From assembly GCA_965205025.1 (NCBI GenBank), contig CBDBFU010000027.1, forward strand, positions 32,001-96,000: DNA of 64,000 nt, in the 5' to 3' direction. Within the stretch, counting starts at the first letter, position 1, and the number at the start of each line of letters is the position of its first letter. Shown here in pieces: positions 8,323 through 54,457 of this stretch. The stretch comes from Candidatus Poribacteria bacterium (GTDB taxonomy: Bacteria > Poribacteria > WGA-4E > WGA-3G). Under the pieces are notes generated by a model. That model ran no database searches, had not been told where the DNA came from, and was given only the letters and a program-made list of their open reading frames with translations. The position numbers and the translations under genes were made by a program.

Positions 8323-8426
8323 GGCGGGAGGTTTAGCGTCTCTCCCGCAAGGACGTTCTTGAATAACACAAGTGCCAGTAATTTATACACGCGACTGGCG
8401 GCGACGAGAGATTATGTATGATCCTA
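8323..8426 (-). repeat. 3' trailer of B gene; inverted copy of 34909-35012, with two hairpins (terminator-like)
   Basis: About 100 bp identical by eye to the reverse complement of 34909-35012; stems GCCAGT/ACTGGC and GCGGGAG/CTCCCGC. Confidence 0.85.
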
Positions 8427-11400
8427 CTTCAGGATCAACATTTTACGGGTAGCAGAAAACTCGTTTGCAGTGAATACGTAGAAATACACACCACTTGCCA
8501 CTTGCTCACCGATAGCATTGCGTCCATCCCAATAGGCTGCACGGCTCCGGTCTGTGTAGTAGCCCTCGGATTGATGTCCAAGTTTCAAGGTGCGTACCAC
8601 GTTTCCTGTTGTGTTGAAAATCGTAATCTGTACATTGGAATCCGTTGCTAACTGATACGGTATCCATGTTTCCGGATTAAACGGATTGGGATAGTTCGCA
8701 AGCAAACGTGTTTTTTCTGGTGATACGACTTCTAACAGACTCTGTAGATATGCCAGCGTATGTTGTGCTGTGAGCGAGTCGTTGTTGGAAGCAATCAACA
8801 GATCAATTTGCTTCTGAACTTCCTCACGTGATACCTTTGGAAGTTTCGCATCTGCGATTGGTGCAGCGTTGGTATCATCACGGTTATCAAACACAAGGAG
8901 CAGATCAAGGAAATTCACACGACCATCACCGTTGACATCAAGGCGTGCATTATCCGGATTCGTCTCTCCGAGTGCATCTGCTACTAATGCAGCATCTGTG
9001 TTATCAACCACGCCATCCTTATTGACATCGTATTTAGAGAAAGTTCCCGGTGGACGTGTCGGTGTTGTGCCGGCTGGCACAGAGATATCTCCGAGTGAAA
9101 CAAGGTCTGCGACGACAGCCTTGGCAGACTTACCGTTGATGTTGCTCTGCATGATTTTCCCACGGATGTTTGTCCAATACAGCTTTTTACCAGCTACATC
9201 AACGGAAATACCGTAGGGGGCAGCGCTTAATGAAATGAGCTCTTGAACATTACTGCCATCAAGATTAGCACTGTGGATTTTCCCTGCTGAACCGCTGGTT
9301 TCCTCTGTCCAGAACACTTTGCCAGCCCCAACAGCGATACTCCCCAATGTGTTATAACCTCTGGCGATTTGCCTTTCCCCTGATCCATCCACATTTGCCA
9401 AATGCACAGTTCCGCGCTCCGTTATCCAGAATATCTTGCCGGAACCAGTGTCAATCGCAACATCTTTGGGGGTGGTCAGACCGATAATCAGGTTCGCTTC
9501 ATATTGTGAACCGTCTATGTTGATGGCTTGTATCTTCCCGCGTTCGGTTGTAACGTAAATCTTACCGTTGACGGTATCGACAGTAATACCCGCAGGAACG
9601 GTCGAGAGATTCCGAATCAGCTGAATGTTTCCACCATTTAGGTTTGCGCTTCGGATTCTACCACTACTACTGGATGATCTTTCAACCCAGAAGAGTTTGT
9701 TGTTTGTAGCAACAAGACTCACAACATTTTGTACACTGGGAGCAACGGCTTCCACACTGCTGCCAACAAGTCGGTGTATTGTGCCGCTGTCCGTGTTAAT
9801 CCAATATGTATCTGCACGCTGTGATGCTGGCAGACGGATATCGGGTTCTGGGGGTGCTGGGTCTTCCGCTGTGGCGGTAAATGTGACACGATCAGAAACA
9901 CCTGAGACGCTTGCACGGACAGTGTTCCGTCCGGGATCATCCCCGAGGGTGAGGTCTGTTTGTGCACGTCCTCTTGAATTTGTGGTGACCGATGTTGACG
10001 AAAGGCTACCGCCTCCTGCTGTTACGCTAAATGTCACGGTAACACCTGAAACAACATCGTCATCTTCGTCAAGTACTTCAACAACAAGCGGGATTGTTAA
10101 GTTCTGTTCCCGGGTCACCGCGTTGGTTATTACCTGAAACGATCTCAATAGAATCGGCTAAATCACCGACTGTAATGGTAAAGCGAACAGATGAAAGTCC
10201 TGGAACTCTTGCATCTATAAAGTGTGTACCTGCAGCACGTGGTCGGAATTCTGCTTCGGCTTCACCGTTCCGATCGGTTGTTGCACTGCGCGTAACTGTG
10301 CCACTACCTCTTAAACTGAACGTGACGGTTACACCTTGCAGATCGTTACCATCTTCATCTGTGACGTGGACGATGAGGGGTTGGTCAAGATAACGGTTCG
10401 GTGTTCCGCGCTGGTTATTCCCTGAAACGATTACGATATCGCCTGGTACAAGTGCACCTGTAGCGTCAAAGAACACATCTGTCACAGTAGTGATGCCGAC
10501 GCTTGCGCGAACCCTGTTATCTTCGTCATCATCACCTAAGACAAGGTATGCACGCACTTCACCGTTTGTATCACTGTCGACTGTTAAGGTATTACTACCA
10601 CTTGTAGCACTTCCTGAAGTTGAAAGTTCACCATCGCCATCTACGATTGTAAACGTCACCTGTATACCTTGTACAGTAGTCGCAGCATTGGTATCCCGAA
10701 CGACTTTGAGGACAAATGGATCGTCAAGTACTTCGCCGCGATTTCCTTCTTGGTTGTCACCGGAAACGCTATCGCTCCGCGTCTTTCAATAGCCGAATAC
10801 CGAATACCGTAACCGTTGCAGTACCAGTATTCACACCTGTGGTAGACGTCACGGTAGCGGTGATGGTATATTGTCCAGGTGTAGTCGGTAGTCTGAACGT
10901 ATTTGGTGTAGTTGCTGTGCCAGTGACATCTGAGGTTAAGATATACGTACCGACATTCGTTCGATCACTGGTTCTGACCACGTCAAGTATGACACGTTGG
11001 TTCGCTGTCCTTTGTGGCAGCAGTATCCCTGATTGTGTGAGGTGCACCTGGTGCGCCAGAAGTACTCGTTTGTCCAGCGTTATTCGTTTGGATAATAGTG
11101 AGTGTACCTGTCGTTGGTGGTTGTTGCGTACCTGTAGACGATATTGTGAAAGTTACATAGTTTCTTCCACTGACTGTAACATTTGAATCTACAACCACTG
11201 CAGTTACCGTCTGTGTTGTAGGACTTGAAAGAATTCTATATGAATAGGAAGCAATACCGTTACTATCCGTTCTATCTGATCCAATGCGTACATTGTTGTT
11301 ATTGCGGAACTCGACATTAACATTGCGAACAGCTCTCTGGGAACTATCCACAACACGTGCCGACAATGTAACAGAACTGTTAGCAGATCCCGATAAAGAA

Positions 11401-14378
11401 CTTCTGCCCGAGATCTGTATACTTACATCGGTTTGCGTTGGTGTAGGTATTGTGGTACCTGTAACCGTAAGGCTTAGTGTTGCGTCTCTATAGTTTCCTG
11501 CTGTGTCAATGACTTGAGCAGTACGAGTCGTACCAGAAGGAAGATTGGGTATTCTTAGTGTGAAAGACACGGAGCCGTTGGCATCGGTTCGTTTAGCAGG
11601 TACGGTAAACGGTGACAAAATATCAATATTTATGCCTGATTGTCGAGGATTGGTGGTTACACTCACGTTCACGACTTCATTCGGGGCGCCACTAACAGAA
11701 CTTGGAAAAACTACGAGACTTCCTGTTTGTGGTTGCGTAGACCGTTGAACGTTAAGTGTGAGAGGTGCTGTCCTCCCACCAGAAGATACAGTAACGTTAT
11801 GTGTTCCGGTAGTGCTTGGTAAGTTAAAAGTTATTACAGCACGACCGTTGGCATCTGCCGTTCCAGAGGCTAATCCTGGTAGACTAAAACTACCTATCTG
11901 AACTGCTGCATGAGGAGTTGCTCCAGTAACAGTAACACTTACCGATGCCCCAGGTGCTCCTGTCCTTGACGTTGGTGAAACGCGGAGGGTTCCTGTGCCT
12001 GGATCTCGTGTGGTTGTTCCGGTACCATTGATATTAAACGTCACTCGCCGGATTATATCATCATAAACACCTGTTGTAATAGTTGCATGAACGACTCTTG
12101 CCCCTGTTGTTGCACCTACGTTGTATCGAACGGAAGCTTCACCGTTTGCATCCGTTGCGACCGTTATTCTACGATCAGAATTAGCAGGAGTAGGAGTCGA
12201 TGCAGGAGCCTGCCCCGGATCACCAGTTCTACGATCCAGTAATCTTCCACTACTGTCAACAGTGAAAACAACATCTTTACCTTCAACAATGGCCCCTGCA
12301 GCATCTCTAACAATAATAACTAATGGTTCTGCAAGTTCATGGCTCGCGGCAGCGCGTTGATTATTGCCGCTGACGATCTCAATTCTTGCAAGGTCTTCGG
12401 GATCTCCCGCAACAGCAGTGAACTCTCTCCTGTAACCGCCAAATTCAGCCCTAACAGTGTGTCCGCCAGTAGAACCACTCAGCTGCAAAAGAACATTGGC
12501 TCTGCCGCTGTTATCTGTCATAACTGTTGTAGCGGTATCAGCGGCGACAGGAAAACCATCAGCATATAATTCATCGGGGAAATTGGGATCTTTAACTAGT
12601 GTACCTTGCGAGACTGCAGTAAATGTAACTGCTTGTCCAGAAACAGGTCTTGTGCCATCAAGCACTTGAACAACAAAAGGTTCTACAAGATTTGTACTTG
12701 TATTTCCAACCTGATCATCACCGGATACCTTTTTAAAAGTAATTGGTCCGTTGAAATAAGTAACAACTCGTGTCGCACTATCTCCTCCTATAGATCCGCG
12801 AATATGTGCTGTAACCTTAGCTGTAGAATTGGGATTCACACGGACAAATGCGCTGGCGACGCTACCAGAACCAGAACTGACATAGAGGTTGGAAACATAA
12901 TTTGGTCTTGTCAAATCCAAAACATCAGGATCCAAATGAAGGGTTCCACCAGTAATTGAGAGATTAACACCAACATTAGCGGCACTTGTTGCAATACTAA
13001 TCAGGCTTCCCTGCGTATATTGAGTACCTCCATAGGTCTGTGGTGTTGGTGTTGTACCGGTTGAAGCAATAGTCGCACCCCTTGCTGCATCACTACTTAA
13101 CGCTTCTACTACATAAGCGGTGAAAGTTTGTGATGCTGTAGTACCACTAACAGGACCAGAAGGTACACTTGCAGTTACAGTAGTTGGAGCAGCAGTAGTA
13201 GGTAGATTACTGTAGTTTACGCGCGCCCTACCGCTTCCATCTGTTAAAATCTCAATTGAATTCACGTTTCCAGATGTTGATCGGAAGCCAGTCTGGCCAG
13301 ATGGAGTTGCAACTGTATACGTAACTGTCTGACCGGAAACACCCCGATTGTTTGTCCCGCTATCTACAACTCTCACCTCAAGAGGTGTATTTAGACCACC
13401 AGCACCAACATTTTGTACCTGACTATTACCGGACACTCTTTGAATTTCTACTTTACCATAAAAAATCGTAACTTCATGTGTTGCCCCACTCTGCGTAGAA
13501 CCAGGAATTGTCACCCTAACCTTGGAAGTAGAGGCTGAACTTGCTTGGTATGTCACAGCAGCAACACCGCTACTGTCAGTGAAAGCGGTAATTGTTCTGG
13601 AACCGGAATTCAAACTTGTATGTATTCTTGACCCACTCACATAATAATAATCCCCGCTTGTCGGTTCGGTTGTATAGAGATTTCCACTTCCGGTACTAAT
13701 AGTAAACTGAACCTTGGTCCATGCGGATGCAGTAGTACCGTCGGTAGATGCCGTAACTTCAATTCTTTTGGCGCTCGCTCTGGCAAGTGTCTGGGGTGAT
13801 GCAGTTTGAGCTGAAAATGAGTAAAAATTAGTTTGACTACGGTTCCGGACAACATAAGCACTGATTGTTTTAGTCTCAGGATCACTATCATCATCCCAAT
13901 CTGGATCTACTGCTACTTCAAAAAGTCCATAGTCGGTAACACTATAGTTGACAGTAATAGTACCAGACCAACGCCACGCTTCAGTCCATGCAGTCCGGGC
14001 GTCAGGATCTGTTATAGAAGCGGGTGGATCAGGGGCAGTAAAAGTAATTCTTGCAGTCCCATCACCATCACTTGCTCCTACCGGTGCATCTGGTACATCT
14101 ATTGACCTTGCAGCGGCAGGACTACTATAAGTAATATCGATTGTATCACCAGTTGCCGCTCTGTTTACTCGAATGTTAAAGGAACGTTGAATTGGATCTG
14201 TAGACGACGGATCATCGGATACCTCAATGAACGTGACCCCAGCAGTTGAGGACGTAATAGCATTATCCCCACTGACTGATAAACTCTGTGCGTCTGCCAC
14301 GCCGTGCACACCAACTGCCAACACCAATGCTATGAGTATGCAGAGGACGGACTTTCGTGTGAAAAATGTGTTATTCAT
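8424..14378 (-). CDS. Large secreted protein B1: Ig-like (Big_1-type) repeats, YWTD/LDLR-B-like propeller, dockerin/EF-hand-like pair, C-terminal T9SS-A-like/FlgD-Ig sorting domain; frameshifted
   Basis: Four ORF pieces (14378-10983, 11047-10769, 10659-10078, 10148-8424) are collinear with intact paralog 30355-34911; extra bases near 10775 and 10090 relative to the paralog. Confidence 0.85.
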
Positions 14379-14753
14379 TATATGTCTCCTGAATATAAAA
14401 TATATAATGTCTTCTGATAATGGTTTCTGAAAAGTGAAAAGGTTTTACGTAATCTTGTGTTTCTTCAATAACGGTAGGGCAGTTTCCTATTTTCGCATGC
14501 CCGGTAGGTTCGGTTTCCCGGGGAATGCCTAATGGCATTCATACCGTTGATTCACCGAACCGGGTTTGTTCCAATTGCGTACATAAAGTTTTTCGCGAAG
14601 GATCCAGTGCGATTAGGAAATCGCACCTACCGGTCTGGGAAAACCACTAAATTGACGCCTATATGGCATTCATACCGTTGATTCACCGCACCTACCGTAA
14701 ATCATAAATATCGCGATCAGGAGGTTGCTCCTACAGAATGTATTCTTGTGTAT

Positions 14754-14954: not shown

Positions 14955-17900
14955 TTATTGTGAAGCTTTTAGCTCACTCCACGTCGTTGTAAGTCTGTTC
15001 TTCGCTGAGATGAGGCCTTTCAACTTGGTTATAGCAAGTGCTTGGCGTTCACCGGCGAAGGATACATCTTCAATCTGGTAGTAGTACACAACACCTGGTT
15101 TGGCGGTCTGATCAACCCATTTATAGGTGTTACGTTCACCTGTTGTACCAGCACCTTCGATAAGCTCAGCGTTGACCTGTTTGTACTCACCGTTCCGAGT
15201 ATCACTACGTAGGATATTAAATCCAGCGTTGTCAAGTTCGGATTCGGTTGTCCAACGGACAGTCACTTTACCATCTTCAAGTGTTGGACGGAAGTGTGAT
15301 AATTCAACAGGTAGCACCATACCCGGACGGTTTCCAGGTGTACCGTAATCATCTTCAACACCAAACCAAGTAGACTTGATAGTGATTTTGAATTCCCGTT
15401 CAGTATTCACAGCAGGAATCCAACTATACTTCGCATCAATCTCACCTGGCGTTTTGACTGTCTTGTCACCGGTACCCATGATTGGCTGAACATTACTTTC
15501 TGCTGTGTTCACACCAGCGCGTGCAACGCCTGGTTCGCCGCCAAGACCATCAGCATCATCATAGATACGTATGATAGAAGTACGGTTACCGTCAGCAGCT
15601 ACGCCTGCGGGGAACTCCCATTCAGCATCATCACTGGTTCGGGCATCACCGTCAAGGTTACCAACCATGTCTGCTACATCGCCAGCATTGTCAACAAGTG
15701 CGATATTGAATGCTTTCGGATTGAAGAACATATAACGTGTGTTTGCACCGAATTTATTCGCGCCACCATAATCTCTGAAGACATTGAAGACACGATTGTC
15801 ATTAAACACATCGCCACCAGTTGCAGAGTCACTATTTGCCTGTCTGGCATTACCCGCAACAATCAGAACTGTCTGTTGTGGGAGAATAGTTTTCACTCTA
15901 CCTTTATCTTTGAAACTAAGAGACAGTAGACTATCCATCGGATTGCCATCAGCATCAAGCATTTCAAAGACCAGTTTCCAGCCTTCGCCGAGATCAACAG
16001 CGTTTGTCGGTGAACTGTTGTAAAGCTCAATCCACTGTGGTAATATCGGATTTTCGGGGTTAGGACCGGTGGAATACATGATCTCACTGATGGTCACTGA
16101 AGCATCCGCAGCTTTGGTCTTAACGATACCAGAATTTACAACACTGTTACCGTCGTATCCCGGTGTGCCGTTGTGATAACTGACACGTGCTCTGGCTGTG
16201 CGCCTATAACCGATACCGGTATAAATTGCATCACGGAAAGCGTAGTGTCCAACACCTTCATCTTTGTGTGTGACACCTGTACCTGCACGGTTACCGGGTG
16301 TTCCACCATCAGCATCATTTTTCGCATAAGTAGAAACGTGTTGACGGAAACGAACTCTGTTTACCTCAAGACGATTATGACGTCTGTGATTCAGGTCACC
16401 ATGCCCATAATGTGGTCTCATGTCACCGTTGAAGTTCCACAATGGCCAGAGGGTCGTACTATTGAGACCTGATGGCGTTGATGCTGGATAGTTGGATTTA
16501 TCCAATCCTGTATGGGACCCGGCAATATCCATGATTTTGTCAATATCATGTTCACCAACATCAGCAACACCCTCACCGTCGTTACCACCTGTATTAGACC
16601 TATTACCGTTATATTTGTCATGTCTACGCAGGATCAGTATATAATCGCCACCATTAGGCAGACCACCATTTTCAAAAGTTATCACTTTTTGTCTCGGCGG
16701 TTTACGATTACTGTTATCTCCTTCAACAAGACCCAAACCATCTGCCTGATCACTTGCATGTGCAATATCAACGTTCAGACCGACAGCGATCGGGTGATCA
16801 TCGTCATATCGCGGATCCGTAGCAAGTAATAGAAGAACTTCTCCAGGTTCAATCTGTGCATTATCGTCATTCGGAAATTGAACCAATGGGAGGTCAGTTC
16901 CAACAGCAGTTACCATTGAAATCATCCAGTTCCGTAAATTGACCTTGCTACTACCGACGTTCTTGAGTTCAATCCATTCATACTCGGCATTAGCATTGTC
17001 ACGGTTAGCAACTTCATTGATAATAACAGTAGGTTCACTTCTGAAGATGGTCTTACCGTTACCATCCTTCTGTCCCGTATCTACCCTTGCAACCATTGTT
17101 GTACGTTCACGTGTGCTCGCTCTTGAAAGATTAATGCTATGTGGACGACCCCGGTGAACCTATATAATGATAAAGCGCATTATCGGTATCGCTTCTTGTT
17201 GTTGATGCAAGATACTCTCTATCAGATTCATGCCAATGACCCGCTGATGTACCATTTACATAACCGCGGTTTTTATCGCCAACATAACTTCTGTGCATAG
17301 AGATAAAGTTCACACCTGTATAACTATTACCGTTCTGCCCCTTACTATTATTGTCCGTGCTGTCATCTTCCTCCCGAACTGCCCACGCTGCAGAACCAGG
17401 ACTACCGTTATAGGCATTACCAATTCTATCTTTTACACCTTCGTTATGGGTAACAGCAGAATCTAAACCAGTTCTGGCATACAGGAAGATTTCAACAGCT
17501 TTTCCTGTATCATTACTAAGTTCAATCCACTGTTCAGCAGCTTCTTCGTCGTTAGTGGCACCACGCATGGATAGATCAGATGCCCACATCACTTCAGAAA
17601 TACGGACAGTTTCTCTTTGGTTCTCGCCACCATACGGTACCTGATTAGCGAGGTTTGATTGCCCCGGTGCTTCTTTTAAGTTCAGTGTGCCACCAAACCC
17701 TTGATTAGTACCGGAAGGTTTAAGCCTAAAGAGCACTTCTAAATCAGGCATATTACACCAAACAACTGTTTCAATATTTGGAGCAGGCGTCGGGGGTTGT
17801 TGGTTAACTGGGAGTCTCGGTTGATCTGAAAGATAATCATAAGTCATTCCTGCTGTTTTGGTGACAACCATAATTGTGTTGACGGGAATATGGAATATGG

Positions 17901-19866
17901 GACCAACATTAAATGGCATCTTTTTCTCTGCGTTCCCATTCCCCGCGTCATCGTGCACTACATTCGCCTTTACCACGACTTCCACGGTCGTCTCACCGAT
18001 GTTTGGGATAAGCGTGAAGGTTGCAGTTTTTGGATTCGCGCTCGCATTCCATTTGAAACTACCTGCCTTTATGCTGCCTCTATTCACATCAACTTCATTT
18101 CTAGCAATTGCTGCGTTGCTTGCCAGAGCTACATTGTCCATCGGTGTAATAGTGATCATTGCACCATCAAGTGAATCAACATCACCAGCTTTATTAGGCG
18201 CTACAGGCTCTGGACAAAGGTCGGTATATTGAACAAGATTGCGTGCCGCAATTGTAACAGTCGGAGCATCACCTTCTGGGTTATATACACCTTCCGCACC
18301 GGGTGTGCGATTACCTGCCAGGTCTTGTGCAGCATTAGCTCTCACTTCAACCCTGACTGCTGTATTCGCTGCTCTGGGACGGACATATAACGTGTAACTC
18401 TCTGCAGAATCTCCGTGTGCGGTGGTATCCTTCGTAAGATCGCCATCGGCTAACGGATACGCATCACCAGTATCAATATCAATATCATTGATCGTAAGTG
18501 CTGGAATTTCTGCGGTAAGGTCAGTACGAGTAGAATAAAGTTTTTCGTTAGAAAGAATTCTGAACATCAACAAACCTTTTTCGTTACGATCAGTCGTAGC
18601 TGGATCATCTACAGCGGTGGGTGCTCCAGGCGGTACAACTGTCAATACCGGTGAATCGTTATCTATAACATGAACCGTCACCGTTTCAGATTTTGCGTCC
18701 GATGTCATACCGTTGTTGTTTGTGATCGCTCCTGCTTCAACTGTTAATTTCACATCTCCAGCAGCAGCAGGCGTAACTGTTATTGTCGTTACCATACCAG
18801 CTGTAGCGAAGTTTTTAATGGTTCCGCCTTCAACTGAAACCTCATTGAAGGACAGAACTAAATCCGCACCGGTACCAGCAACAGTATCACTAACAGTTAC
18901 AGTAAACGTGACATCTGTAGTTGCCAAGTCAGAGGCTGCGATCGGACCCGTTGACGGAGCAGGATCGTTCTTTGCAATGGCTACTGTTGGTTTTGTGGTT
19001 ACAGGTGCATCTGGTAAAAAAGGAACGAGTGTAAAGATATCCGGCGTCCCCGTGCACTATTATCAGCATTTCGACTTGATGGAAGGTTGTTCCAACGTGC
19101 AAGTGGATCTACTGCTCGAAAATCGGGCAACGCTTGTGCAGAACCACCTTCTACGACTACTTCAAACAGAATGTTTTTCCCGTCAATAGCGGGTTCCGTA
19201 GAAGCATCGTCTCCAGCTGCCTCTGCAGCCACTGGCAGTGCCCCGTTAGCAAGCGTAAATGTTACATCAAACATCCTTTTAGAATTATTTGCTGTAGCAG
19301 TATCATTGTCCGTATCAACAGGAGCAAATGCAACACTACTTATAGCAGTCGTGAGACTTCCAAAACCACCGCCAGTAGCAGCACCGTAATAAAGCAGCTC
19401 ATTGGTTCCTTCAACACCGATTTTGACGGTGAGTAGATCGCCCAAGGGTTCCGCCATCAGATGTAAATAAACCATCAACAGTAGTGGGTGCCTCGTAAAG
19501 CACGTCTTCACTAAATGTAATTCTAAAGGTAGCAGCAGTTACTGCTGGATAAACAGCAGAATCAGGATCCATTAGGCGTGTGGTTGCGACCCTAGCCAGT
19601 ACATACGTTGTACCACCAAATGTTATGGAGGTAGCTGGTTCAGCATCAGCACCGGTAGCTCCAACAGTAACCGTCGGATGGTCACCTAAGACGTGATCTG
19701 CTGTGGGTGCATTTACCAAGTTACCGTCTGCATCAGTATCAGTGTGTGAGTTATCATCTGCATTTTCATGTGCCATCACAGATGTTCCAACAAACACACC
19801 CCCAAGTGCAAGCAGTAAAATTAAAGTTGTTATACAATATGTCAATTTATTTGACAATAACATCAT
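14955..19866 (-). CDS. Cassette A1: giant secreted Ig-like plus lamin-tail-domain protein; frameshifted
   Basis: Pieces 19866-19411, 19511-18999, 18927-17137 and 17096-14955 are collinear with 24868-29673; LTD-like motifs ISEVMWA..QWIEL, IINEVANR..YEWIELKN, ISEIMY..PQWIELYN; LPVELSHF..WTTESE..LTTTWSELK C-terminus. Confidence 0.85.
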
Positions 19867-19947: not shown

Positions 19948-19950
19948 TAA

Positions 19951-20031
19951 ACAGACAGGGATAACCTGTTTGTCTGTCTTTTGATTGATTTCGCTATTTT
20001 GAATTAGACAAAAGGGGATTTTTGTCTAATT
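19951..20031 (-). other. Putative recombination site 1 (expression position): 25-mer dyad 19951-19975 plus perfect 12-6-12 dyad 20002-20031
   Basis: AATTAGACAAAA-ATCCCC-TTTTGTCTAATT and AGACAAACAGGTTATCCCTGTCTGT on the minus strand; homologous elements precede all four A genes. Confidence 0.7.
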
Positions 20032-20177
20032 GCGTCAATTCACGGTAGTCAATCATCTTCACATTGGATTGTCGAAGCTAAACTTTTCTTAGGTCTGTTG
20101 CTTCGTTCCAATCCACAATATCCTTAAACTTATGTTGCAGTCGGTGTTTAGAACCGTTATCCGCAAACTTGTCAGTA

Positions 20178-20206
20178 ATTATAGGTTATTAATAATATAA
20201 TGTCAA
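20178..20206 (-). promoter_or_regulatory. Consensus sigma70 promoter P1 directed at site 1/cassette A1
   Basis: TTGACA (20206-20201), 17 bp spacer, TATAAT (20183-20178). Confidence 0.88.
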
Positions 20207-20434
20207 ATGTTTTTTCTATTGTTTATGTATTAAACATTAGAACCGGGGCTTCAATCTGTTTAAAATTCTGTTTTTCAATGTTGTGTGTATGCTTTTCTGT
20301 ACCCGTTCTATACACCGTTTCGGCTGTACCGTTTTTGAAGTTCCCCTATGAACAGATTTTCATTTTAACATTATTAAAAAATTTAATCAACAATTTTTTT
20401 GCGTTTTATTACTTTATACGCACAATTGTGGATT

Positions 20435-20463
20435 ATTATACACTATTATACGTTTTATGTCAA
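20435..20463 (-). promoter_or_regulatory. Second consensus sigma70 promoter P2, same direction as P1
   Basis: TTGACA (20463-20458), 17 bp spacer, TATAAT (20440-20435). Confidence 0.8.
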
Positions 20464-20689
20464 GCAATAATTACAAAAAAACATACACCTCTGTTTAAAT
20501 AGAGTGTTTTACATTTATGACGGTTTGTTAGGTTTGTATCCTAACATTCCCGTATTATACATTATATATATACGTTATAAGTCAAATAATGGATACAAAA
20601 AAATTGAAAAAAGTTTCTGAACGATGGATTACGCGGATTTCACGGAGAAGAGGAAAGCCCGGGGCTTATTGTTTTGCGTTTTTACGTTT

Positions 20690-20985
20690 TCTACACACCT
20701 TTCGCCCCTCTGGGGCTTACGGTATTGGTGATAACGACTTCTATAAACATTCCGTCCCTACGGGACTCAAGAACATGGATCAAGCATTTTTGCTATAGAC
20801 ATTTCGTTCCTACGGAACTCAGGAATATGGAGCAAATATCTTTGCTATAAACATTTCGTAGACAGGTCTATTGAAGACACCCATGTGTTTTTAGAACGGA
20901 TATAGTCCCGTAGGGACGGAATGTCTATAGAAAACGTGTGTATCCCCATAAGTGAGTCCCGTAGGGACGGAATGTCTATATCAAC
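20690..20985. repeat. REP/REPIN cluster (GTCCCGTAGGGACGGAATGTCTATAG family) flanking tnpA
   Basis: Multiple copies in both orientations. Confidence 0.8.
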
Positions 20986-21019
20986 ATATAGGTGGAGTTT
21001 TCAAGAGACGTATGATCTT

Positions 21020-21493
21020 CTAAGAATCGCTCTCTAACACTGGATGAAAAATATATCTTTCATCATAATCAACATTAAATCGTTTTAACAACTCAATATA
21101 TTCTTCTCTAAACGACTTCTGCTTATGGTGCTTTTCTTGATTAAGGATATAATTTGATACACTCTCTATTTGTGAATGTGCGTAAGTAAAGGCAGAATAA
21201 CCTTCTTGCCATTTGAATTGACCGGCAACCCATTGCTTCTTGTTTATGAATCGTGATGAATTTGCTTTAATATCTTTTACCAATTCCGATAGTGCCATTG
21301 AAGGATCTATACCAACAAAAATGTGTATATGGTCTGGCATAGAATTGATTTGGATCACTTTATGTTTATTATTGGTGATTATACCTGTAATGAATTTGTG
21401 AAGTTCTTCTTTATGTTCCTTCGGAATTAGGTTTTGACGATGTTCAACTGCAAAAACAATATGTATATATAATTGTGTATATGTGTTTGCCAT
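21020..21493 (-). mobile_element. tnpA: IS200/IS605-family Y1 (HUH) transposase TnpA, REP-associated (RAYT-like), copy 1
   Basis: YTQLYIHIVFAV, MPDHIHIF (HUH), WQEGYSAF, YILNQEKHH; flanked by REP hairpins. Confidence 0.9.
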
Positions 21494-21554
21494 AGTATTA
21501 CTCCTTACGGTTTGTATTTTATCATTTTGTCCTTACCCAATCAACGAGAAATGT

Positions 21555-21810
21555 GCTATAGACATTCCGTCCCTACGGGACTCAAGAATATGGAGCAAAT
21601 ATCTTTGCTATAGACATTCCGTTCCTACGGAACTCAGGAATATGGAGCAAACATCTTTTCTATAAACATTTCGTAGATAGGTTTATTGAATACTCCCATG
21701 TGTTTTTAGAATGGATACAGTCCCGTAGGGACGGAATGTCTATATCAACATATAGGTGGAGTTTTCAAGACACGTATGATCTTCTATAAACATTTCGTAG
21801 ATAGGTCTAT
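21555..21810. repeat. REP cluster on the other side of tnpA copy 1
   Basis: CTATAGACATTCCGTCCCTACGGGACTC units and an inverted copy. Confidence 0.8.
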
Positions 21811-21958
21811 TCACCCAGGTGTCTTTACATCCGCTGAAGTATATGTTTCTACAGGTTGAGTATTAGGAAAGTTGACTCTAACTATTCAATTTCAATGGTA
21901 TGAAATAGTATAGCCAAAGAAGGTATTTACAGATTAATAGCAGAAAAAGATAATAGTA

Positions 21959-22210
21959 TTAGGAGAGATTGACAAGATGATGCCCACGTTCAAGTTTAAC
22001 CTGATGTAAATCAAATTCAACAAGTCGAATTACACCCGGTTCATCGTCATATACTACACCGATAGATGCAATTGTTTCTTCGGTTCCTAAAGGATCTTTA
22101 AATTCAACTATATCACGGACTTTTCCAGGATTCCCGTCAACAACAATTCTATCACCAACATTTAAGTCTTTTACATTCTGGAAAGGAATATACTTTATAG
22201 TATCTGTCAT
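21959..22210 (-). CDS. Small hypothetical protein (83 aa; beta-rich, possibly SH3/KOW-like)
   Basis: Clean ORF with AAGGA RBS; LNVGDRIVVDGNPGKV pattern. Confidence 0.6.
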   Translation of the reverse strand: MTDTIKYIPFQNVKDLNVGDRIVVDGNPGKVRDIVEFKDPLGTEETIASIGVVYDDEPGVIRLVEFDLHQVKLERGHHLVNLS

Positions 22211-22514
22211 TTTAGATTCCTTATAATATTATATTTGAATATATGAAATAGGATTGTCAGGATGTAAATTACAAATTGAATCTGTATTGCCAAATTACTT
22301 TACTGAACTAACAAGTAGTTTTATTTTGAAATACAATAGACGGTAAAGAAATAATCAACACATTCTGATTATAAACTATAAAGTTCAAAATGTCAAATTA
22401 CAATTCATTCTTATACCATTTCCAATTGATAGATTTACATTATGATTTAAGTAAAACAGGGACAATCATATACAGATCTATGAGTCCTGGGCTAATTTCT
22501 TTTTTATTTGCTTT

Positions 22515-23095: not shown

Positions 23096-23142
23096 GAAAT
23101 CCGCGAATCAAAAAACTGATAGCCAACAGCTGATAGCCAAAC

Positions 23143-23191
23143 AAAAACAACAAGGAAACACAGACATCAAATCGGCTTCCTTGTTGTTTTT
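23143..23191 (-). terminator. Terminator-like hairpin downstream of the recombinase
   Basis: AAAACAACAAGGAA...TTCCTTGTTGTTTT stem. Confidence 0.6.
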
Positions 23192-23298
23192 GCTTGTTAA
23201 GTATATATATATTAATGTATTGTGTAGAGTGAATACGTTTCCGAACACCTACCAATCACCAATACAGATTATTCGTATAAAATTAACAGGTTTCAGTT

Positions 23299-49682: not shown

Positions 49683-49762
49683 AAAGATACAATAATCCCC
49701 TTTTGTCATGTTCAAGCCTGGTAGTCATAACACAGATAGACAAACAGGTTATCCCTGTCTGT
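49683..49762 (+). other. Putative recombination site 4 (left arm of the upstream dyad degenerate)
   Basis: AAAGATACAATA-ATCCCC-TTTTGTCATGTT (49683-49712) and invariant 25-mer (49738-49762). Confidence 0.65.
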
Positions 49763-49885: not shown

Positions 49886-52800
49886 ATGAATATGTCAAAT
49901 CGATTGACATTTAGTATTTTAAGTATATTTTTACTGCTTGCATTCGTGGCAGTGCCGGTGATGGCACACGCGCCAGATGACGACACGGTAGGACCGCACA
50001 CCACACATCCAGTGGAGGTAGCAGTTCCTGAAGTTACAGGAGATAACCGTGTACCAGCGGTGCCTGTACACGGTCCACATCCGATGGTAACGAGTATTGC
50101 CCTAAAACCCGCTGCTGGTAAGGTTCGGGACAATATGGTAGTGGTTGGTGTCGCACCTGCTACGCCAACTGATGGCATTGATGCAAATGAGTTTGTCCTA
50201 ATCGTTACTTTTGACCGTCCTGTCGTTGGTGCAACAGGTTCTACAGATCAGGATACGGATGGTGATGGTGATAAAGATGCTGTTGATGCTGCAGCGATTC
50301 TTACTGCTTCAACTGGTAATGATAATGAGGTATTGTATTCTGTCCGAGATAAAATGCGTGTTGCACTTGCCACGCAAACTGATATTACCTTTAAAGATGT
50401 CAAATTTATGGGGACTACCTATGACAAATTTGAAGTCACAGTAGAGGTTGGCACAAGTGCTGTCCCTACAGGCACGGCAACTGATGCGACCGAAAAGGTG
50501 ATCCTCATAGTGCAAATTGGGGCTGGTGCTGTGTTTAGTGCACAAACATCAATACCGGATCCTCAGGGTGGTGTAACAGATGTAATCGTTCCTGGTGGAG
50601 CGAATTTGGCGTCAAATGCAAGAAATTCAGAGTTTATGTTGGTCAAAGCGTTGCCAACAGTTACAGTCGCTGATACAACAAAACCGACACTGACGATTAC
50701 ACATGCCCCCGCTGATAACATGCCCCTTCCCGATAGTGGTAATGTGACATTTACCTTTACTTTTAATGAGGAGCCTGGTGAAAATGATGCCGCTTTCACA
50801 CTCGGTGATGTTACTATTGACGGTGGTAGGGCTGTTGACTTTGGTGGTAGTGGCATGGTGTATACGGTGGAAGTAACGCCTGATGATCCAATGATGTCTG
50901 TGACAGTAACCGTTGCTGCGACCGCAGTATCGGATGCCGCTGGCAATAACCTTGCTGAAGGTCAAACAGAAACATATATGGCTGATGATACTGTAGCTCC
51001 AACAGTCGAAATTACTGCTAAAAAGATCGCAGATGGTGATAATGCAGGTAAAATTCTTTTCACATTAACATTTAGTGAACCGCTTGGAGCGGGTGAATCT
51101 GCCTTGTCAAGGAATGACCTTGCACTCAGCACTGGTGCTTCGGTGGCAAGAATTCCTATGAAGGATGATAATGATGATAAAGTATGGACGGTAATTGTCA
51201 CCCCATCTGCCTCAGGTCCGACAACACTAACAATCGAAGGTGGTTCGGTTAAGGACGTGCAAGAGAATGCATTGTTAGCAGATAAGTCACATACGTATGT
51301 AGCACCTGATGCACCTGTGGTTGCTGCCAAGGATCCGACAACGGCAACCATCCCAAGCATATTTGGGTTCAGCATTCCAGCGAATTCTTACGTTGTTCTT
51401 ACGAGAAACGCACTAGCCACGCCACGGCAAGATGGTCTGAACTTCCGAGACGTGCCTGATAGTAAGGTAGTCGTTTGGGAGAACATGCCTGATTTATGGG
51501 AGCGCCTATTTGATAGAGGTTATGAAGGTGGTGGCGCACTTGTTTTGAGATCCTCTTACGGCGATGCCGCTGCAGATAGACCCAAAGTTGGTACCGTTGG
51601 TATTAGCGAGATTATGTGGGCTATTGATGTAGGAAAATATGGTGATTTTAGAGGAACCGATCGCACAGATCCCCGCAATAAAACGTGGTTAGATTCACAG
51701 TGGGTTGAAGTTCACAATCTCAATGCGAAAGCCGTGAAGGTCTTGATATATGCGCAAACAGGACGCGATCTTGTTGGCACTGGCAACGTTGTTGGCAATA
51801 CGAAGGCTGGCGATACAATCCACGGCAACCCCGGTGGTATGGTCGTTGATGTCATGACAAACTTCTTTAACGGTGCAGACCGTGGAAGCGGTGGTTGGGA
51901 TGTACCCGGCGCGAACGGTAATAGCAAAGCAGGTGTTGATTTCATCTCAATGGCACGGCAGCCGAAGCGTGGTTCATTTAACTTGACCCGTAGACACGAG
52001 AATAAGGCTGATAAACCGTTGGATGGCTTATATGCCAAAACAGGCGGAAGTGAGCAGAGTTTAGATGGCAGAGCTTCCGGTAGTTGGGCAGCGGGCAGTG
52101 TGATTTATGAAAGGGAAGATACGGATATACCTTCTGGTACTACAGCTGCTCTCCCGTTAACTTATGAATATTTAGGTACACCGGGACATCCGAATACAAG
52201 GGCACCTGCAAGTCATATCACCCGAAATGCTCGGACAAGTGTGCCAAGCAATACTGTTATCATCAACGAGGTTGCGAACCGTAATGATGTACATAAAGCT
52301 TACGAATGGATTGAGCTTCGCAATGTTTCTACTGCTGAAATAAACCTGCGGAATTATCTCATTTCAATTGTACAGGCTGTGGACAGTGATAAAGTCTTGT
52401 ATCAATTCCCAGCAAACGATAATGCCAAGATTGCTGTAGGCGGAGTGTTCCTCTTAGTCGCCTCTGATCCGAGTGGCAATCCGAGCCATCCCTTAGCAGC
52501 AGGATACAACGTTGATAAAAATGACGAAGATCAAGTGCCAGGTTCGCGCAAAAACCCTGTGCGATATAAGGTCGCTGATGTTGGTGGTGTCCCCGGTTTT
52601 GGTAATGGTCGAAACACAGGTGAGAGTGTAACAACCTTACCAGACAGTGGTAAATTCGTCCTGATCCTACGTAGACCAGACAACCATGAAGGTCACAGGT
52701 CTGGTGCTGATGGTGGCAAAGGTGTTGCTGAACGCGGTAAAGATGACGTTGATAAGATCGTTGATATCGCTGGATGGCACGATAACTTGAAGAAAACCGG

Positions 52801-54241
52801 TTTTGACAATGCGGTGTCTTCAACGGATTTATGGCCACTTCGAAGTTTCCGTGCACCTAATTTTAATCTGAATTCGTTCCAACCAGAGACGGTTCACTTC
52901 CGCCAACGCGGTGCCCATGGTCTTGGAGGCGTCAACGATGGTGCCAGTGGTGTTGGTGCGCATGAAAATAAGAATGAAGGTGGCAAAGCCGCGTTCCGTG
53001 ATGAAGGTTATTCCGGTATCGGTTACAAACGCCAAGCTTCCAAAACCAATTTCCACGGCGGAAGTCCTGGCTACCACGGTAACGTGAGCGGACGAGTTGA
53101 TGCTACTGCGAAAGTTGTTATCAGTGAAATTATGTTGTCTCAAGGCAACGGTCGTGTGAAACTGCCACAGTGGATTGAACTCTACAATCCTTCTAAGACG
53201 CATGCAGTCAACCTCACGGATAATGCTGGCTGGAGACTCGTTATCGAAAATCCAAATCGTGCACCTATCAGAACTATCCACTTCAAGAGTGGTAAGCATG
53301 ATGTGAAAACGATCCTGCCGAATCAAACAGTGCTCATCGTTTCATCGGCGGCAAGGGATTATGGTAGTGATACCTTATCGAGAGGTACGGTATTTCCAAA
53401 TACTCGTGTCCTGAATGCATATACAGTCCTGAAGGGTGAAACTTTTGAGATGGCAAGCCGGACAGATGTGCTCCTTGATCCAAAGGCTTTCAACGTCAGA
53501 TTGTTGGATGGTAAAACACACGACAATAAGCCTGGTGGACGCTATATTGGTGACGTATCAGACGAAGTTGGTAACCTTGACGGTAACCCGCGAACGAATG
53601 ATGCGGCTGCATGGGAATTCCCAGACGGTGTGACTGAAGAGGGTGATCGCACTTCACTCATCCGTATCTTTGATGAAGGTATGGCTCGCAGTGGCACAGG
53701 CATGGTGAAACCGCTTGGTGGCACAGATGGTGTCGGTGTTGACGGAATGCCCGGTATTGATGCCAAGTATAGTTGGGTTCATGCCGCTGATACAGAAGAC
53801 TTTGAGAAGCTCTTTGTCCGTCATACGTGGTATGGTGCTGAAACTGATTACGGCACACCCGCAGACCGTACAGGTCAAGTCTTACCTGTTCAATTATCAC
53901 ACTTCCGTCCGACGCTTGAAGATGGTAAAGTTACGATCCGTTGGACAACCGAATCCGAACTTAACAACGCTGGATTTAATATCCTTCGTAGTGAAACACG
54001 GTACGGTGAGTACAAGCAGGTAAATGCTGAACTGATTCAAGGTCACGGAACAACCGGTGAACGTCATACCTATAAATGGGTTGACGAATCCGCTAAACCG
54101 AATGTAGTTTACTACTATCAAATTGAAGACGTATCCTTCGCCGGCGAGCGTCAAACGCTTGCTCTAACCAAGTTGAAAGGACTTATCTCAGCCGTAGGTA
54201 AAGCCACAACAACGTGGGGCGATATTAAAGAGGTACAATAG
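49886..54241 (+). CDS. Cassette A4: giant secreted Ig-like plus lamin-tail-domain protein (1451 aa)
   Basis: Signal peptide VMA-H, unique N-terminal ~480 aa, LTD-like modules, LPVQLSHF...KATTTWGDIK. Confidence 0.92.
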   Translation: MNMSNRLTFSILSIFLLLAFVAVPVMAHAPDDDTVGPHTTHPVEVAVPEVTGDNRVPAVPVHGPHPMVTSIALKPAAGKVRDNMVVVGVAPATPTDGIDANEFVLIVTFDRPVVGATGSTDQDTDGDGDKDAVDAAAILTASTGNDNEVLYSVRDKMRVALATQTDITFKDVKFMGTTYDKFEVTVEVGTSAVPTGTATDATEKVILIVQIGAGAVFSAQTSIPDPQGGVTDVIVPGGANLASNARNSEFMLVKALPTVTVADTTKPTLTITHAPADNMPLPDSGNVTFTFTFNEEPGENDAAFTLGDVTIDGGRAVDFGGSGMVYTVEVTPDDPMMSVTVTVAATAVSDAAGNNLAEGQTETYMADDTVAPTVEITAKKIADGDNAGKILFTLTFSEPLGAGESALSRNDLALSTGASVARIPMKDDNDDKVWTVIVTPSASGPTTLTIEGGSVKDVQENALLADKSHTYVAPDAPVVAAKDPTTATIPSIFGFSIPANSYVVLTRNALATPRQDGLNFRDVPDSKVVVWENMPDLWERLFDRGYEGGGALVLRSSYGDAAADRPKVGTVGISEIMWAIDVGKYGDFRGTDRTDPRNKTWLDSQWVEVHNLNAKAVKVLIYAQTGRDLVGTGNVVGNTKAGDTIHGNPGGMVVDVMTNFFNGADRGSGGWDVPGANGNSKAGVDFISMARQPKRGSFNLTRRHENKADKPLDGLYAKTGGSEQSLDGRASGSWAAGSVIYEREDTDIPSGTTAALPLTYEYLGTPGHPNTRAPASHITRNARTSVPSNTVIINEVANRNDVHKAYEWIELRNVSTAEINLRNYLISIVQAVDSDKVLYQFPANDNAKIAVGGVFLLVASDPSGNPSHPLAAGYNVDKNDEDQVPGSRKNPVRYKVADVGGVPGFGNGRNTGESVTTLPDSGKFVLILRRPDNHEGHRSGADGGKGVAERGKDDVDKIVDIAGWHDNLKKTGFDNAVSSTDLWPLRSFRAPNFNLNSFQPETVHFRQRGAHGLGGVNDGASGVGAHENKNEGGKAAFRDEGYSGIGYKRQASKTNFHGGSPGYHGNVSGRVDATAKVVISEIMLSQGNGRVKLPQWIELYNPSKTHAVNLTDNAGWRLVIENPNRAPIRTIHFKSGKHDVKTILPNQTVLIVSSAARDYGSDTLSRGTVFPNTRVLNAYTVLKGETFEMASRTDVLLDPKAFNVRLLDGKTHDNKPGGRYIGDVSDEVGNLDGNPRTNDAAAWEFPDGVTEEGDRTSLIRIFDEGMARSGTGMVKPLGGTDGVGVDGMPGIDAKYSWVHAADTEDFEKLFVRHTWYGAETDYGTPADRTGQVLPVQLSHFRPTLEDGKVTIRWTTESELNNAGFNILRSETRYGEYKQVNAELIQGHGTTGERHTYKWVDESAKPNVVYYYQIEDVSFAGERQTLALTKLKGLISAVGKATTTWGDIKEVQ

Positions 54242-54457
54242 GGTTAAATTTCAGGGATAATTTAACCGTTCTCCTCAACGCATGGACACTGCAGGGTCTC
54301 GATTGAGGAATCTATCTAAACAATATTCTACAATAAGAGCCGGCTGTGATCTCAAAAATGCAGCACTCTTATTGTAGAATACCTCACATACCCAATCCCA
54401 ATGATCTTAAACAAGAAACAGGGTCTCGTAGGCAACTACAAGACCCTATTTCTTTTT
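54242..54457 (+). terminator. Four-hairpin 3' trailer of A4
   Basis: Same sequence as 39928-40143. Confidence 0.75.

Follow-up and report, generated by a model that had tools for sequence, protein, structure and literature searches.

The window, a 64,000-nt stretch, probably carries a site-specific promoter-inversion switch serving the major secreted envelope protein, a lamin-tail-domain (LTD) protein, of a Candidatus Poribacteria symbiont, a lineage that the original prediction had named correctly. Most of the genus appears to have a single LTD gene with two tandem near-consensus promoters and a long conserved leader. Within one such group of few members, the clade of G000 (the source genome), G018 and G025, the promoters and a gene for a small tyrosine recombinase lie together on a segment of 3-4.7 kb, flanked by two inverted 30-bp sites that are located inside the leaders of two divergent cassettes. 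Strand exchange by the recombinase at the spacer of these sites would flip the segment, and the promoters would then read into one or the other cassette, the choice in the source genome being A1-B1 or A2-B2. Three further, apparently promoterless cassettes have the same site (A3, A4 and, on contig C7, A5-B5); exchange between sites 1 and 3 would give a nested inversion of ∼15.4 kb that places the promoters before A3, and exchange between sites 1 and 4 one of ∼29.7 kb that places them before A4. The two-state flip between A1-B1 and A2-B2 is well supported by the genome comparisons, and nested switching that reaches cassettes 3-5 is plausible. The recombinase is predicted to be the agent of flipping, and switching presumably continues in the present-day locus; cassettes 3-5 may take part in it, and cassettes not joined to the promoters would be silent.

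The invertible segment (20014..24718, ∼4.7 kb) extends from the spacer of site 1 to the spacer of site 2 and contains the promoters, REP arrays with a RAYT-like gene, an 83-aa ORF and the recombinase gene; inverted homology within the window pairs 19813-20026 with 24921-24706. The RAYT-like gene (21020..21493, minus strand) encodes an IS200-like Y1 transposase (Y1_Tnp, 99.9 bits) and is flanked by 52-bp REP-like arrays. The transposase and the arrays are a passenger, missing from the segment of G018, in which a copy of the transposase (67% amino-acid identity) is found outside the segment, upstream of tRNA genes. A comparison of cassette order in related genomes, which had been proposed as a check, revealed the promoter-recombinase segment reversed between collinear flanks. 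G018, of the same genus, is collinear with the source genome on both flanks, the left one, which carries the tRNA genes, at 97% identity, and the right one with rplM, purA and a 1140-aa ORF; its recombinase and promoter-leader block match the source genome in reverse orientation. The perfect promoter pair faces the rplM-side cassette in G018 and the tRNA-side cassette in the source genome. The segment of G025 was obtained as a separate 3403-bp contig, which ends exactly at terminal inverted repeats of 149 bp (99.3% identical). Both relatives, G018 and G025, possess exactly two sites.

Nine sites from the three genomes were aligned across the exchange point. The sequence upstream of an invariant 12-mer was of the promoter, recombinase or another type, and the spacer downstream was of the TAATTC or ATGTTC type. 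The promoter type was paired with TAATTC and the recombinase type with ATGTTC in G000 and G018, and the opposite pairing was found in G025; the linkage therefore breaks within 12 invariant bases. Twelve bases are too short for RecA-type homologous exchange, and a breakpoint of this size would be consistent with the core site of a recombinase. Because the orientation is reversed in G018 and the partners of the 12-mer are swapped in G025, the comparison supports an inversion of the promoter and recombinase segment between its inverted sites during the evolution of the genus. This evidence spans evolutionary time and comes from three assemblies, two of which (G018 and G025) are short-read MAGs.

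According to the original prediction, the same composite site precedes all four A genes of the window, and recombination would take place between its copies. The composite site was confirmed at each of the four genes, with the A1 copy inverted relative to the others (site 1 on the minus strand; sites 2, 3 and 4 on the plus strand), but it consists of two separate parts, a leader hairpin and a 30-bp dyad. The hairpin, the invariant 25-bp core of the composite site, lies at 19951..19975 (minus strand) in site 1 and is an exact 25-mer found at five places in the genome, and its other copies in the window are at 24756-24780, 35466-35490 and 49738-49762 (plus strand). Across 15 genus leaders the stem (AAACAGG/CCTGTTT) is nearly invariant and the loop variable, and 18 of the 40 genus genomes have the motif, some of them lacking the recombinase. 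Given its occurrence throughout the genus irrespective of the recombinase, the 25-bp core was ruled out as the recombination site, and that element of the inversion reading was dropped; the promoters and the recombinase between inverted sites, with the segment reversed in G018, were retained.

The exchange point maps to the 12-mer, ∼40-50 bp upstream of the hairpin core. The invariant 12-mer, TCCCCTTTTGTC, is surrounded by a 30-bp dyad that was found solely in the three genomes with a close recombinase orthologue, and the 5.66-Mb genome has five copies of it, compared with an expectation of 0.49, every one of them at these sites. The site 1 dyad, the putative recombination site (20002..20031, minus strand), consists of a 12-bp arm, a 6-bp spacer (ATCCCC) and a second 12-bp arm, which are complementary at 12/12 positions. 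The arms are complementary at 10/12 positions in site 2 (24701..24730, plus strand), at the recombinase end of the segment, at 8/12 in site 3 (35411..35440, plus strand) and at 7/12 in site 4 (49683..49712, plus strand), the right arm and spacer being conserved in sites 3 and 4. The layout of the sites is a variable left arm, an asymmetric 6-bp spacer, (A/T)TCCCC, and a conserved right arm starting with TTTTGTC. The homology that site 1 shares with site 2 and the C7 site stops at the inner edge of the site 1 dyad. The pattern of 12-mer plus hairpin was detected in 3 of the 40 genus genomes and in 0 of the other 37, and the same three encode the recombinase at an identity of at least 85%; with one mismatch allowed, a 12-mer-like motif was found in 4 of 25 leaders, all from genomes with the recombinase or a remnant of it. 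A search for the composite site pattern among metagenome contigs gave 0 matches.

The recombinase gene (23299..24051, minus strand) encodes a protein of 250 aa. As proposed, it is a catalytic-domain-only tyrosine recombinase that shares the segment with the promoters: PF00589 (100.1 bits, cut-off 27.1) covers residues 9-188, so that eight residues precede the catalytic domain, and the protein has no N-terminal core-binding domain and a conserved tail of ∼55 aa. R42, K72, H148, R151, H174 and Y183, presumably the catalytic residues from knowledge of the fold, are invariant in seven aligned recombinase sequences. The whole genome has two PF00589 matches, this recombinase included, and the protein is 85-87% identical across the three species; judged by its sequence, it looks active and dedicated. 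The FimB and FimE models (NF007371 and NF007370) gave 53.8 and 46.7 bits, below their cut-offs of 222 and 221, and the XerC and XerD models (TIGR02224 and TIGR02225) gave 92-96 bits against ∼330, with model positions ∼106-285 alone aligning. The protein is best placed in the tyrosine recombinase superfamily, outside the FimB/FimE and XerC/XerD families. In G005, the recombinase has an internal stop and one degenerate site is present. No flanking inverted repeat of at least 24 nt was found within 7 kb at seven genus loci with recombinase paralogues of at most 75% identity. Relatives were detected at no fewer than 80 loci in metagenome contigs (best identity 64%); the 11 of these that were examined (49-64% identity) had no flanking inverted repeat of at least 20 nt and no exact 12-mer-like motif, and showed one match to the 12-mer with 1 mismatch and one perfect promoter. 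Since these distant homologues are without flanking inverted repeats, the proposed invertase role may not extend to the whole recombinase family.

The two perfect TTGACA-17-TATAAT promoters predicted to point at A1 were confirmed (20178..20463, minus strand). They are tandem sigma-70 promoters with 12/12 matches, P1 at 20206-20178 and P2 at 20463-20435, reading out of the segment toward A1, and the pair is also present in G018 and G025, spaced by 257 and 235 bp. A third perfect promoter inside the segment (22396-22368, minus strand) points inward. Genome-wide, 46 perfect promoters were counted against ∼3 estimated from composition, and three of them lie in the 4.7-kb segment. Sites 2-4 had been described as lacking a consensus sigma-70 promoter upstream, in agreement with a best match of 9/12 over the ∼690-860 nt scanned; within 1,010 nt upstream of the fifth (C7) site, no match of 9/12 or better was found. 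Above 9/12, the consensus scan finds promoters solely at site 1 among the five sites, a result that applies to the sigma-70 consensus, and the cassettes could use other promoter types. Promoter blocks are conserved across the genus. The genus leader set comprised 30 loci, 25 of them with a conserved pre-RBS block, and a promoter of at least 11/12 was located within 700 nt upstream in 24 of these 25 leaders (12/12 in 19). Promoterless LTD copies are accordingly the exception in the genus. A perfect promoter on the strand of A5 lies 1.9 kb upstream of this gene, and read-through into A5 might occur. Two tRNAs were the only known RNA families at gathering scores in the window, and the leader (19800-20520) matched no known RNA family at E up to 1.

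The four paralogous A genes of the original prediction (A1 on the minus strand; A2, A3 and A4 on the plus strand) were all found to encode the LTD domain (PF00932, 72-87 bits, cut-off 34.3), which A5 matches too. A1 (14955..19866, minus strand; LTD 79.6 bits) is currently joined to the promoters and encodes 1635 aa after removal of three homopolymer indels. A2 (24868..29673, plus strand; 1601 aa) and A4 (49886..54241, plus strand; 1451 aa) are intact LTD cassettes, and the LTD cassette A3 (35615..39927, plus strand) encodes 1437 aa after a missing T at 36024 is restored. The site, leader and signal peptide are common to the five A genes. The expected variable N-termini and conserved C-termini were also observed, with 20-55% identity between pairs over the N-terminal ∼600 alignment columns and 67-100% over the C-terminal halves within the subfamilies A1/A2/A5 and A3/A4. 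From ∼column 800 onward, A3 and A4 are 100% identical, and a DNA repeat (37014-41411 and 51328-55775, 98.6% identity) points to their origin in a recent duplication of 4.4 kb.

Cassettes 1, 2 and 5 are two-gene units, in which an A gene is accompanied by a T9SS-tailed B gene; the fifth, A5-B5, lies with the same site on contig C7, outside the window. The 8.3-20 kb arm, previously taken for a single gene, actually comprises two, B1 and A1, as revealed by the ORF map, Pfam and the similarity to B2. B1 (8424..14444, minus strand), present as three ORFs in the assembly, has Big_1 (Ig-like), dockerin and T9SS-type C-terminal sorting domains and is 78-88% identical in amino acids to residues 731-1518 of B2. 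B2 (30355..34911, plus strand) is intact, with 1518 aa, three Big_1 domains, a dockerin and a T9SS type A sorting domain that scores above the cut-offs (TIGR04183, 30.2 bits against 23; PF18962, 27.5 against 27). The A C-terminus matched no Pfam family and did not align to the B C-terminus. Three large ORFs match a PorU-type T9SS sortase below the cut-off (at most 300 bits against 420), and the presence of a T9SS is therefore not claimed.

The frame changes in A genes, three in A1 and one in A3, are all in short single-base runs of the assembly. Locus DNA was found in the public runs X5 and X6, as Logan contigs, and in small shares in X1 and X2, as short fragments only. The X5/X6 contigs have 1, 2 and 1 bases fewer at 17149, 19048 and 19441 in A1 and otherwise match the assembly with 0 other letter differences; edited in this way, the A1 frame is open over 1635 aa. 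The A1 and A3 frameshifts stem from homopolymer errors in the assembly, and with these corrected A1-A4 are all intact. A1 as a pseudogene facing the promoters was ruled out, given that the breaks in A1 and A3 are in homopolymers and are missing from the X5/X6 contigs. Because the Logan contigs break inside repeats (∼19852-19918 and 24328-24888), neither the orientation nor alternative joints can be read from X5 and X6; the strand-changing joints in the read contigs (20743/22800 and 21594/35241) lie in REP arrays, away from the sites.

Whether the switch extends beyond two states bears on cassettes 3-5. It is possible, though rather unlikely, that only A1-B1 and A2-B2 are flipped and that A3, A4 and A5-B5 are ordinary paralogues, which inherited the leader and site by duplication and are self-expressed, gene-conversion donors or silent. 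The two sites each in G018 and G025, the degenerate left arms at sites 3 and 4 (8/12 and 7/12), the recent A3/A4 duplication and the perfect promoter upstream of A5 would fit such a restriction, as would the fact that an inversion to site 4 would reverse rplM-rpsI-purA. Sites 2, 3 and 4 are also direct repeats of one another, so that A2-B2, or the essential rplM-rpsI-purA block, would be lost by excision if the recombinase were unconstrained. However, none of the five sites shows any change in the 12-mer, the spacer or the beginning of the right arm, despite diverged surroundings; the C7 site and site 1 share 99% identity across 219 bp, against ∼76% for the gene bodies; and the three extra cassettes have no promoter above 9/12, as opposed to the 24 of 25 genus leaders with one. 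The 150-220 bp at 88-99% identity downstream of the sites show that the locus is also subject to gene conversion or homologous recombination.

That the locus is now static, without phase variation, and records occasional past inversions by the recombinase or by homologous recombination is improbable. All inversion evidence is indeed between species, stretches of 2.6-3.5 kb (82-85% identity) and of 145-219 bp (90-99% identity) are common to the arms, enough for RecA-dependent exchange, and G005 is an example of decay of the system. Against this, the breakpoints are at the invariant 12-bp motif and not inside the long homologies, all catalytic residues are kept in a recombinase conserved across the three species, and the sites are conserved while their surroundings drift. 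A merely regulatory 5' leader, combined with a mobile-element remnant as recombinase and assembly artefacts as orientation differences, is disfavoured and very improbable, for although the 25-bp core is a recombinase-independent leader hairpin, the segment is crowded with REP/RAYT elements and G018 and G025 are short-read MAGs, the 12-mer is missing from leaders of genomes lacking a close recombinase orthologue, no phage or integrative-element genes were found beside the recombinase in G018 or G025, and the upstream and downstream linkage of the 12-mer is readable within single k-mers and so cannot be an assembly choice.

The promoter-inversion switch would be a new instance of vpma/Xer1-like switching logic, which is itself already known. 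The vpma/Xer1 type is outlined in PMC2268961 as a family of surface genes that are alike in their 5' UTR and signal-peptide region, have recombination sites in the 5' UTRs and depend on one promoter, behind which silent genes are placed through inversions by an adjacent tyrosine recombinase. Like Mycoplasma agalactiae vpma/Xer1, M. bovis vsp/Mbr and M. pulmonis vsa/HvsR, the Poribacteria locus has paralogous surface genes, a shared site of the 5' UTR type and a recombinase in the locus. Unlike in vpma/Xer1, the recombinase gene is carried, together with the promoters, on the invertible segment itself, and the cassettes, found in an uncultivated sponge symbiont, encode not lipoproteins but LTD/Ig-like proteins of 1400-1600 aa, three of them with a second gene. 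The recombinase is set beside Xer1 and HvsR by locus layout alone, vpma-like switching is here predicted from sequence, and the alternative arrangements of the vpma type were seen between species (G018 and G025).

As in Campylobacter fetus sapA, a promoter segment lies between oppositely oriented surface-protein homologues, and nested inversions would proceed via conserved 5' regions. Inversion of C. fetus sap depends mainly on RecA acting on 5' repeats of ∼600 bp, with no known dedicated recombinase. Inversion of sap without RecA is cited in PMC5634654. The Poribacteria locus differs in its exchange point, a 12-bp motif, and in its putative dedicated enzyme, and the LTD proteins may be S-layer-like by analogy. 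With E. coli fimS/FimB-FimE the locus shares a catalytic-domain-only tyrosine recombinase of 200-250 aa, a promoter segment and short inverted repeats. The FimB and FimE NCBIfam models align nearly end to end, weakly (positions 5-194 of 198 and 13-181 of 200), and with scores far under the cut-offs the Poribacteria recombinase, unlike the fimS enzymes, is not a family member. The fimS element is an ON/OFF switch for one operon, with the recombinase genes outside the segment.

The R64 shufflon (Rci/sfx) is a multiple-inversion system driven by a tyrosine recombinase; PMC11852207 describes its sites as conserved in the spacer and right arm but variable in the left arm, an asymmetry thought to limit Rci to inversion. 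The Poribacteria system has a tyrosine recombinase, the same site asymmetry and an extra conserved C-terminal tail, and is likened to Rci by these features alone; the shufflon swaps C-terminal coding segments of one gene, whereas here the promoter would be swapped between whole genes. As in the H segment of Salmonella, the recombinase gene and an outward promoter share an invertible segment. Hin is a serine recombinase, and only one end of the H segment faces a target gene.

Programmed variation of the surface through DNA inversion is typical of pathogens and gut commensals exposed to immunity or phages. No published account of phase variation, invertible promoters or LTD proteins in Poribacteria or sponge symbionts was found. 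Should the switch be active, the most strongly promoted secreted protein of an abundant, uncultivated sponge symbiont would be variable, which suggests that the coat of a symbiont is varied as in some pathogens and would bear on how sponges discriminate symbionts from food and on phage pressure inside the sponge. The compact recombinase with its 30-bp site is a candidate inversion tool, and the series within the genus (no switch, two cassettes, five cassettes, decayed) lends itself to studying the origin of such systems. More speculatively, this series may capture an expression-site system at birth, in which a single constitutive copy gave way to a two-cassette flip-flop and then to five cassettes with one movable promoter block, one cassette being unlinked and requiring a chromosome-scale inversion. 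On this tentative reading, the enzyme would represent a new clade of minimal tyrosine recombinase, asymmetric sites would enforce inversion over excision, and an obligate sponge symbiont would switch its coat, presumably against host recognition or phages. With respect to the nature of this coat, the LTD proteins matched no S-layer family in Pfam or NCBIfam; indirect hints toward an S-layer are the signal peptide, the very strong promoters and the presence of one conserved copy per genome in the genus.

The locus opens on the left with tRNA-Glu and tRNA-Lys (8084-8242, minus strand), followed by a left arm composed of B1 (8424-14444, minus) and A1 (14955-19866, minus), a central segment of 4.7 kb, and a right arm composed of A2 (24868-29673) and then B2 (30355-34911). 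Farther to the right lie A3 (35615-39927) with a RAYT-like gene after it, then rplM, purA and a 1140-aa ORF, and finally A4 (49886-54241), followed by a second RAYT-like gene. When the window was compared with itself, the two arms were found to form an imperfect inverted repeat, with matches of 85% (8317-10930 against 35018-32413), 82% (14502-17920 against 30125-26757) and 90% (19813-20026 against 24921-24706). The window covers 32001-96000 of contig C27; a fifth pair, A5-B5, is located elsewhere in this genome of 5.66 Mb and 33 contigs, on contig C7 (197.7-208.1 kb), with an identity of 61% between A5 and A2 and of 77% between B5 and B2. The A proteins, which may be S-layer-like, carry two lamin-tail domains (LTD) and Ig-like Big_12 domains; Big_1, dockerin-like and T9SS type A sorting domains were recognised in the B proteins. 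As originally predicted, the A genes are paralogues with variable N-termini and conserved C-termini: identity was 20-55% over the first ~600 alignment columns, and between members of one subfamily (A1/A2/A5 or A3/A4) it was 67-100% in the C-terminal half, A3 being the same as A4 from about column 800 on. A 4.4-kb direct repeat (37014-41411 and 51328-55775, 98.6% identity) flanks rplM, rpsI, purA and the 1140-aa ORF and makes the C-terminal ~800 aa of A3 and A4 identical, their N-terminal ~600 aa being 28-53% identical. The 1140-aa ORF (45607-49029, plus), kept beside purA in the related genome G018 (81% DNA identity), belongs to no family except for a weak AbiEi-like helix-turn-helix at its extreme C-terminus. 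C-terminal sorting domains of the T9SS type, similar to the one in B2, occur at about 45 loci of the genome, together with three PorU-like ORFs, all under the family cut-off.

Three perfect TTGACA-17-TATAAT promoters were found in the central segment, all on the minus strand. P1 (20206-20178) and P2 (20463-20435), the pair originally predicted, are directed out of the segment towards A1; the third, P3 (22396-22368), lies inside the segment and faces an 83-aa ORF (21959-22210, minus) without a family match in the NCBIfam search and a RAYT-like gene. No DNA-level match to either P3 or this ORF was seen in G018. Perfect promoters number 46 in the genome, against roughly 3 expected from base composition, and further ones in the window precede tRNA-Lys and rplM, so that in this genome a perfect match is a mark of genes with strong expression. 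In the assembly, A1 has three frame changes and A3 has one. Relative to the assembly, contigs derived from the reads of two public sequencing runs (X5 and X6) are shorter by 1, 2 and 1 bases at 17149, 19048 and 19441, respectively, and longer by one T after 36024. All four places are short single-base runs, and no other letter differs over the stretch covered; the frameshifts are therefore not real. After correction A1 is open for 1635 aa, so that the promoters face an intact gene, and A3 for 1437 aa. The breaks in B1 (about 10081-10985), outside the A1 and A3 stretch compared, are probably assembly indels of the same type. Because such indels falsely break long ORFs, other apparent pseudogenes of this genome may be artefacts too.

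The segment also encodes, as predicted, a catalytic-domain-only tyrosine recombinase (23299-24051, minus; 250 aa); the genome has a single further PF00589 gene. The Phage_integrase domain of the recombinase is preceded by 8 residues and followed by a conserved tail of about 55 aa, and R42, K72, H148, R151, H174 and Y183 are invariant among seven aligned sequences (58-100% identity). Although a tyrosine recombinase like Xer and the Fim-type invertases, it falls far under the NCBIfam cut-offs for XerC/XerD and for FimB/FimE-type enzymes, while aligning nearly end to end to the latter models. No flanking inverted repeats were found at seven loci of the genus with relatives of at most 75% identity, nor at 11 of 80 metagenome loci with relatives of 49-64% identity; nothing is claimed for the wider family. 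In genome G034, a 16-kb direct duplication (C12:1-33035, 99.96% identity) holds a recombinase paralogue of 53-58% identity in each copy, one with an internal TGA.

A 25-bp hairpin is common to the five A genes, each of which also has the 12-mer TCCCCTTTTGTC 40-50 bp farther upstream. The hairpin is the invariant core of the composite site in the original prediction; it occurs in 18 of 40 genus genomes (at most 1 mismatch), some without a close recombinase orthologue, and is therefore not taken as the recombination site. In 15 aligned leaders the stem AAACAGG/CCTGTTT was almost invariant and the 4-5-nt loop variable. Of 30 genus loci returned, the 25 with a conserved pre-RBS block were counted: the hairpin was present in 24, a promoter of at least 11/12 within 700 nt in 24 (12/12 in 19), and a 12-mer-like motif (1 mismatch allowed) in only four, those of G000 (the genome under study), G018, G025 and G005. 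An LTD gene with a hairpin leader and its own strong promoters is thus the norm of the genus, and on this sequence evidence the hairpin is a leader element of LTD genes. Throughout the genus this leader (19866-20480, minus; loci L053-L076) conserves two near-perfect tandem promoters, the hairpin AAACAGG-N4-5-CCTGTTT, often with a T run after it, and another inverted repeat, TGTCAA-N5-TTGACA, which spans roughly codons 5-10 in the signal-peptide sequence; no Rfam match was obtained, and these features may form an operator or RNA control element. The candidate recombination site is the 12-mer, found five times in the genome (0.49 expected) and at the A genes only, LTD domains being present at at least 12 loci. 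A 30-bp dyad is centred on it; at site 1 the two arms of the dyad are complementary at 12/12 positions and are separated by the asymmetric spacer ATCCCC.

Comparison of cassette order with related genomes, as the original prediction had proposed, revealed the segment in the opposite orientation. G018, which belongs to the same genus and whose contig matches PYJD01000043.1 of a Candidatus Poribacteria MAG, has a simple form of the locus: tRNAs, an LTD gene (minus), a first site, the recombinase, two perfect promoters spaced by 257 bp, a second site, an LTD gene (plus) and rplM-purA. Both flanks are collinear with the window, and the block of recombinase and promoter-leader matches in reverse, the promoters pointing to the rplM side in G018 and to the tRNA side in G000. 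In G025 a contig of 3403 bp carries the entire segment, with the recombinase and two perfect promoters separated by 235 bp, and its ends coincide exactly with terminal inverted repeats of 149 bp, 99.3% identical. These between-species comparisons are evidence that the segment has inverted. Nine sites were then aligned and classed on both sides of the 12-mer: upstream as promoter type, recombinase type or neither, and downstream by the spacer. Promoter type was paired with TAATTC and recombinase type with ATGTTC in G000 and G018, and the pairing was reciprocal in G025, which places the exchange point inside the 12 invariant bases. This position is compatible with strand exchange at the core site of a recombinase. 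The near-identical stretch of 150-220 bp lies to the gene side of the hairpin, and homologous recombination there does not fit a point at the 12-mer. The composite pattern was present in 3 of 40 genus genomes, exactly those with a recombinase at least 85% identical. G005 has a recombinase gene that is interrupted by a stop codon and placed outside the segment, and one of its two sites is degenerate, apparently a case of enzyme and site decaying together; there (C1:2052900-2066600, L017 and L018) two divergent LTD genes flank a 2.7-kb promoter segment, and the stop is TAA. The X5 and X6 contigs end within repeats, at 19852/19918 and 24328/24888, and the composite site had no match in the metagenome collection. 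The probable reading is that the recombinase flips the promoters between the A1-B1 and A2-B2 cassettes.

In Hin the recombinase and promoter share one segment, as they do here, and in C. fetus sap, as here, the segment is flanked by two divergent targets. The logic is also that of vpma/Xer1 and its mycoplasma relatives, in which the 5' UTR and signal peptide are conserved, the promoter is unique, the sites lie in the 5' UTR and a tyrosine recombinase gene is adjacent (PMC2268961); in Poribacteria the switching is a prediction. A catalogue-level literature search found no paper tying Poribacteria or sponge symbionts to phase variation, invertible promoters or LTD proteins; a known inversion logic would thus be placed in a lineage and protein family without an earlier description in that search.

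Participation of the further cassettes is a more doubtful proposal. In its favour, spacer and right arm are conserved across the sites while the left arm drifts, the C7 site matches site 1 at 99% over 219 bp, against about 76% for the gene body, and the consensus scan gave no promoter match above 9/12 upstream of sites 3, 4 and C7, a sigma70 promoter having been originally predicted to be lacking at sites 3 and 4; use of these sites could be inferred from such features. Against it, the left arms are weak at sites 3 and 4 (arm complementarity 8/12 and 7/12, compared with 11/12 at C7 and 10/12 at site 2), a perfect promoter 1.9 kb upstream of A5 may allow read-through, and sites 2-4 are direct repeats, so that excision between sites 3 and 4 would delete rplM-rpsI-purA. 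In shufflon sfx sites, a variable left arm is thought to confine Rci to inversion (PMC11852207); the asymmetry of the sites here, likewise with a variable left arm, resembles that of the sfx sites by analogy.

Three RAYT-like genes for IS200-like Y1 transposases (21020-21493, minus; 40604-41092 and 54969-55457, plus) are 97% identical copies within tandem arrays of 52-bp palindrome-bearing repeats (20660-21760, 22480-23060, 40290-41220 and 54600-55580), a REP/RAYT arrangement. The 52-bp repeats reach depths of thousands in metagenome contigs. Copies of a 746-nt repeat (96% identity) are mutually inverted and could themselves mediate large inversions.
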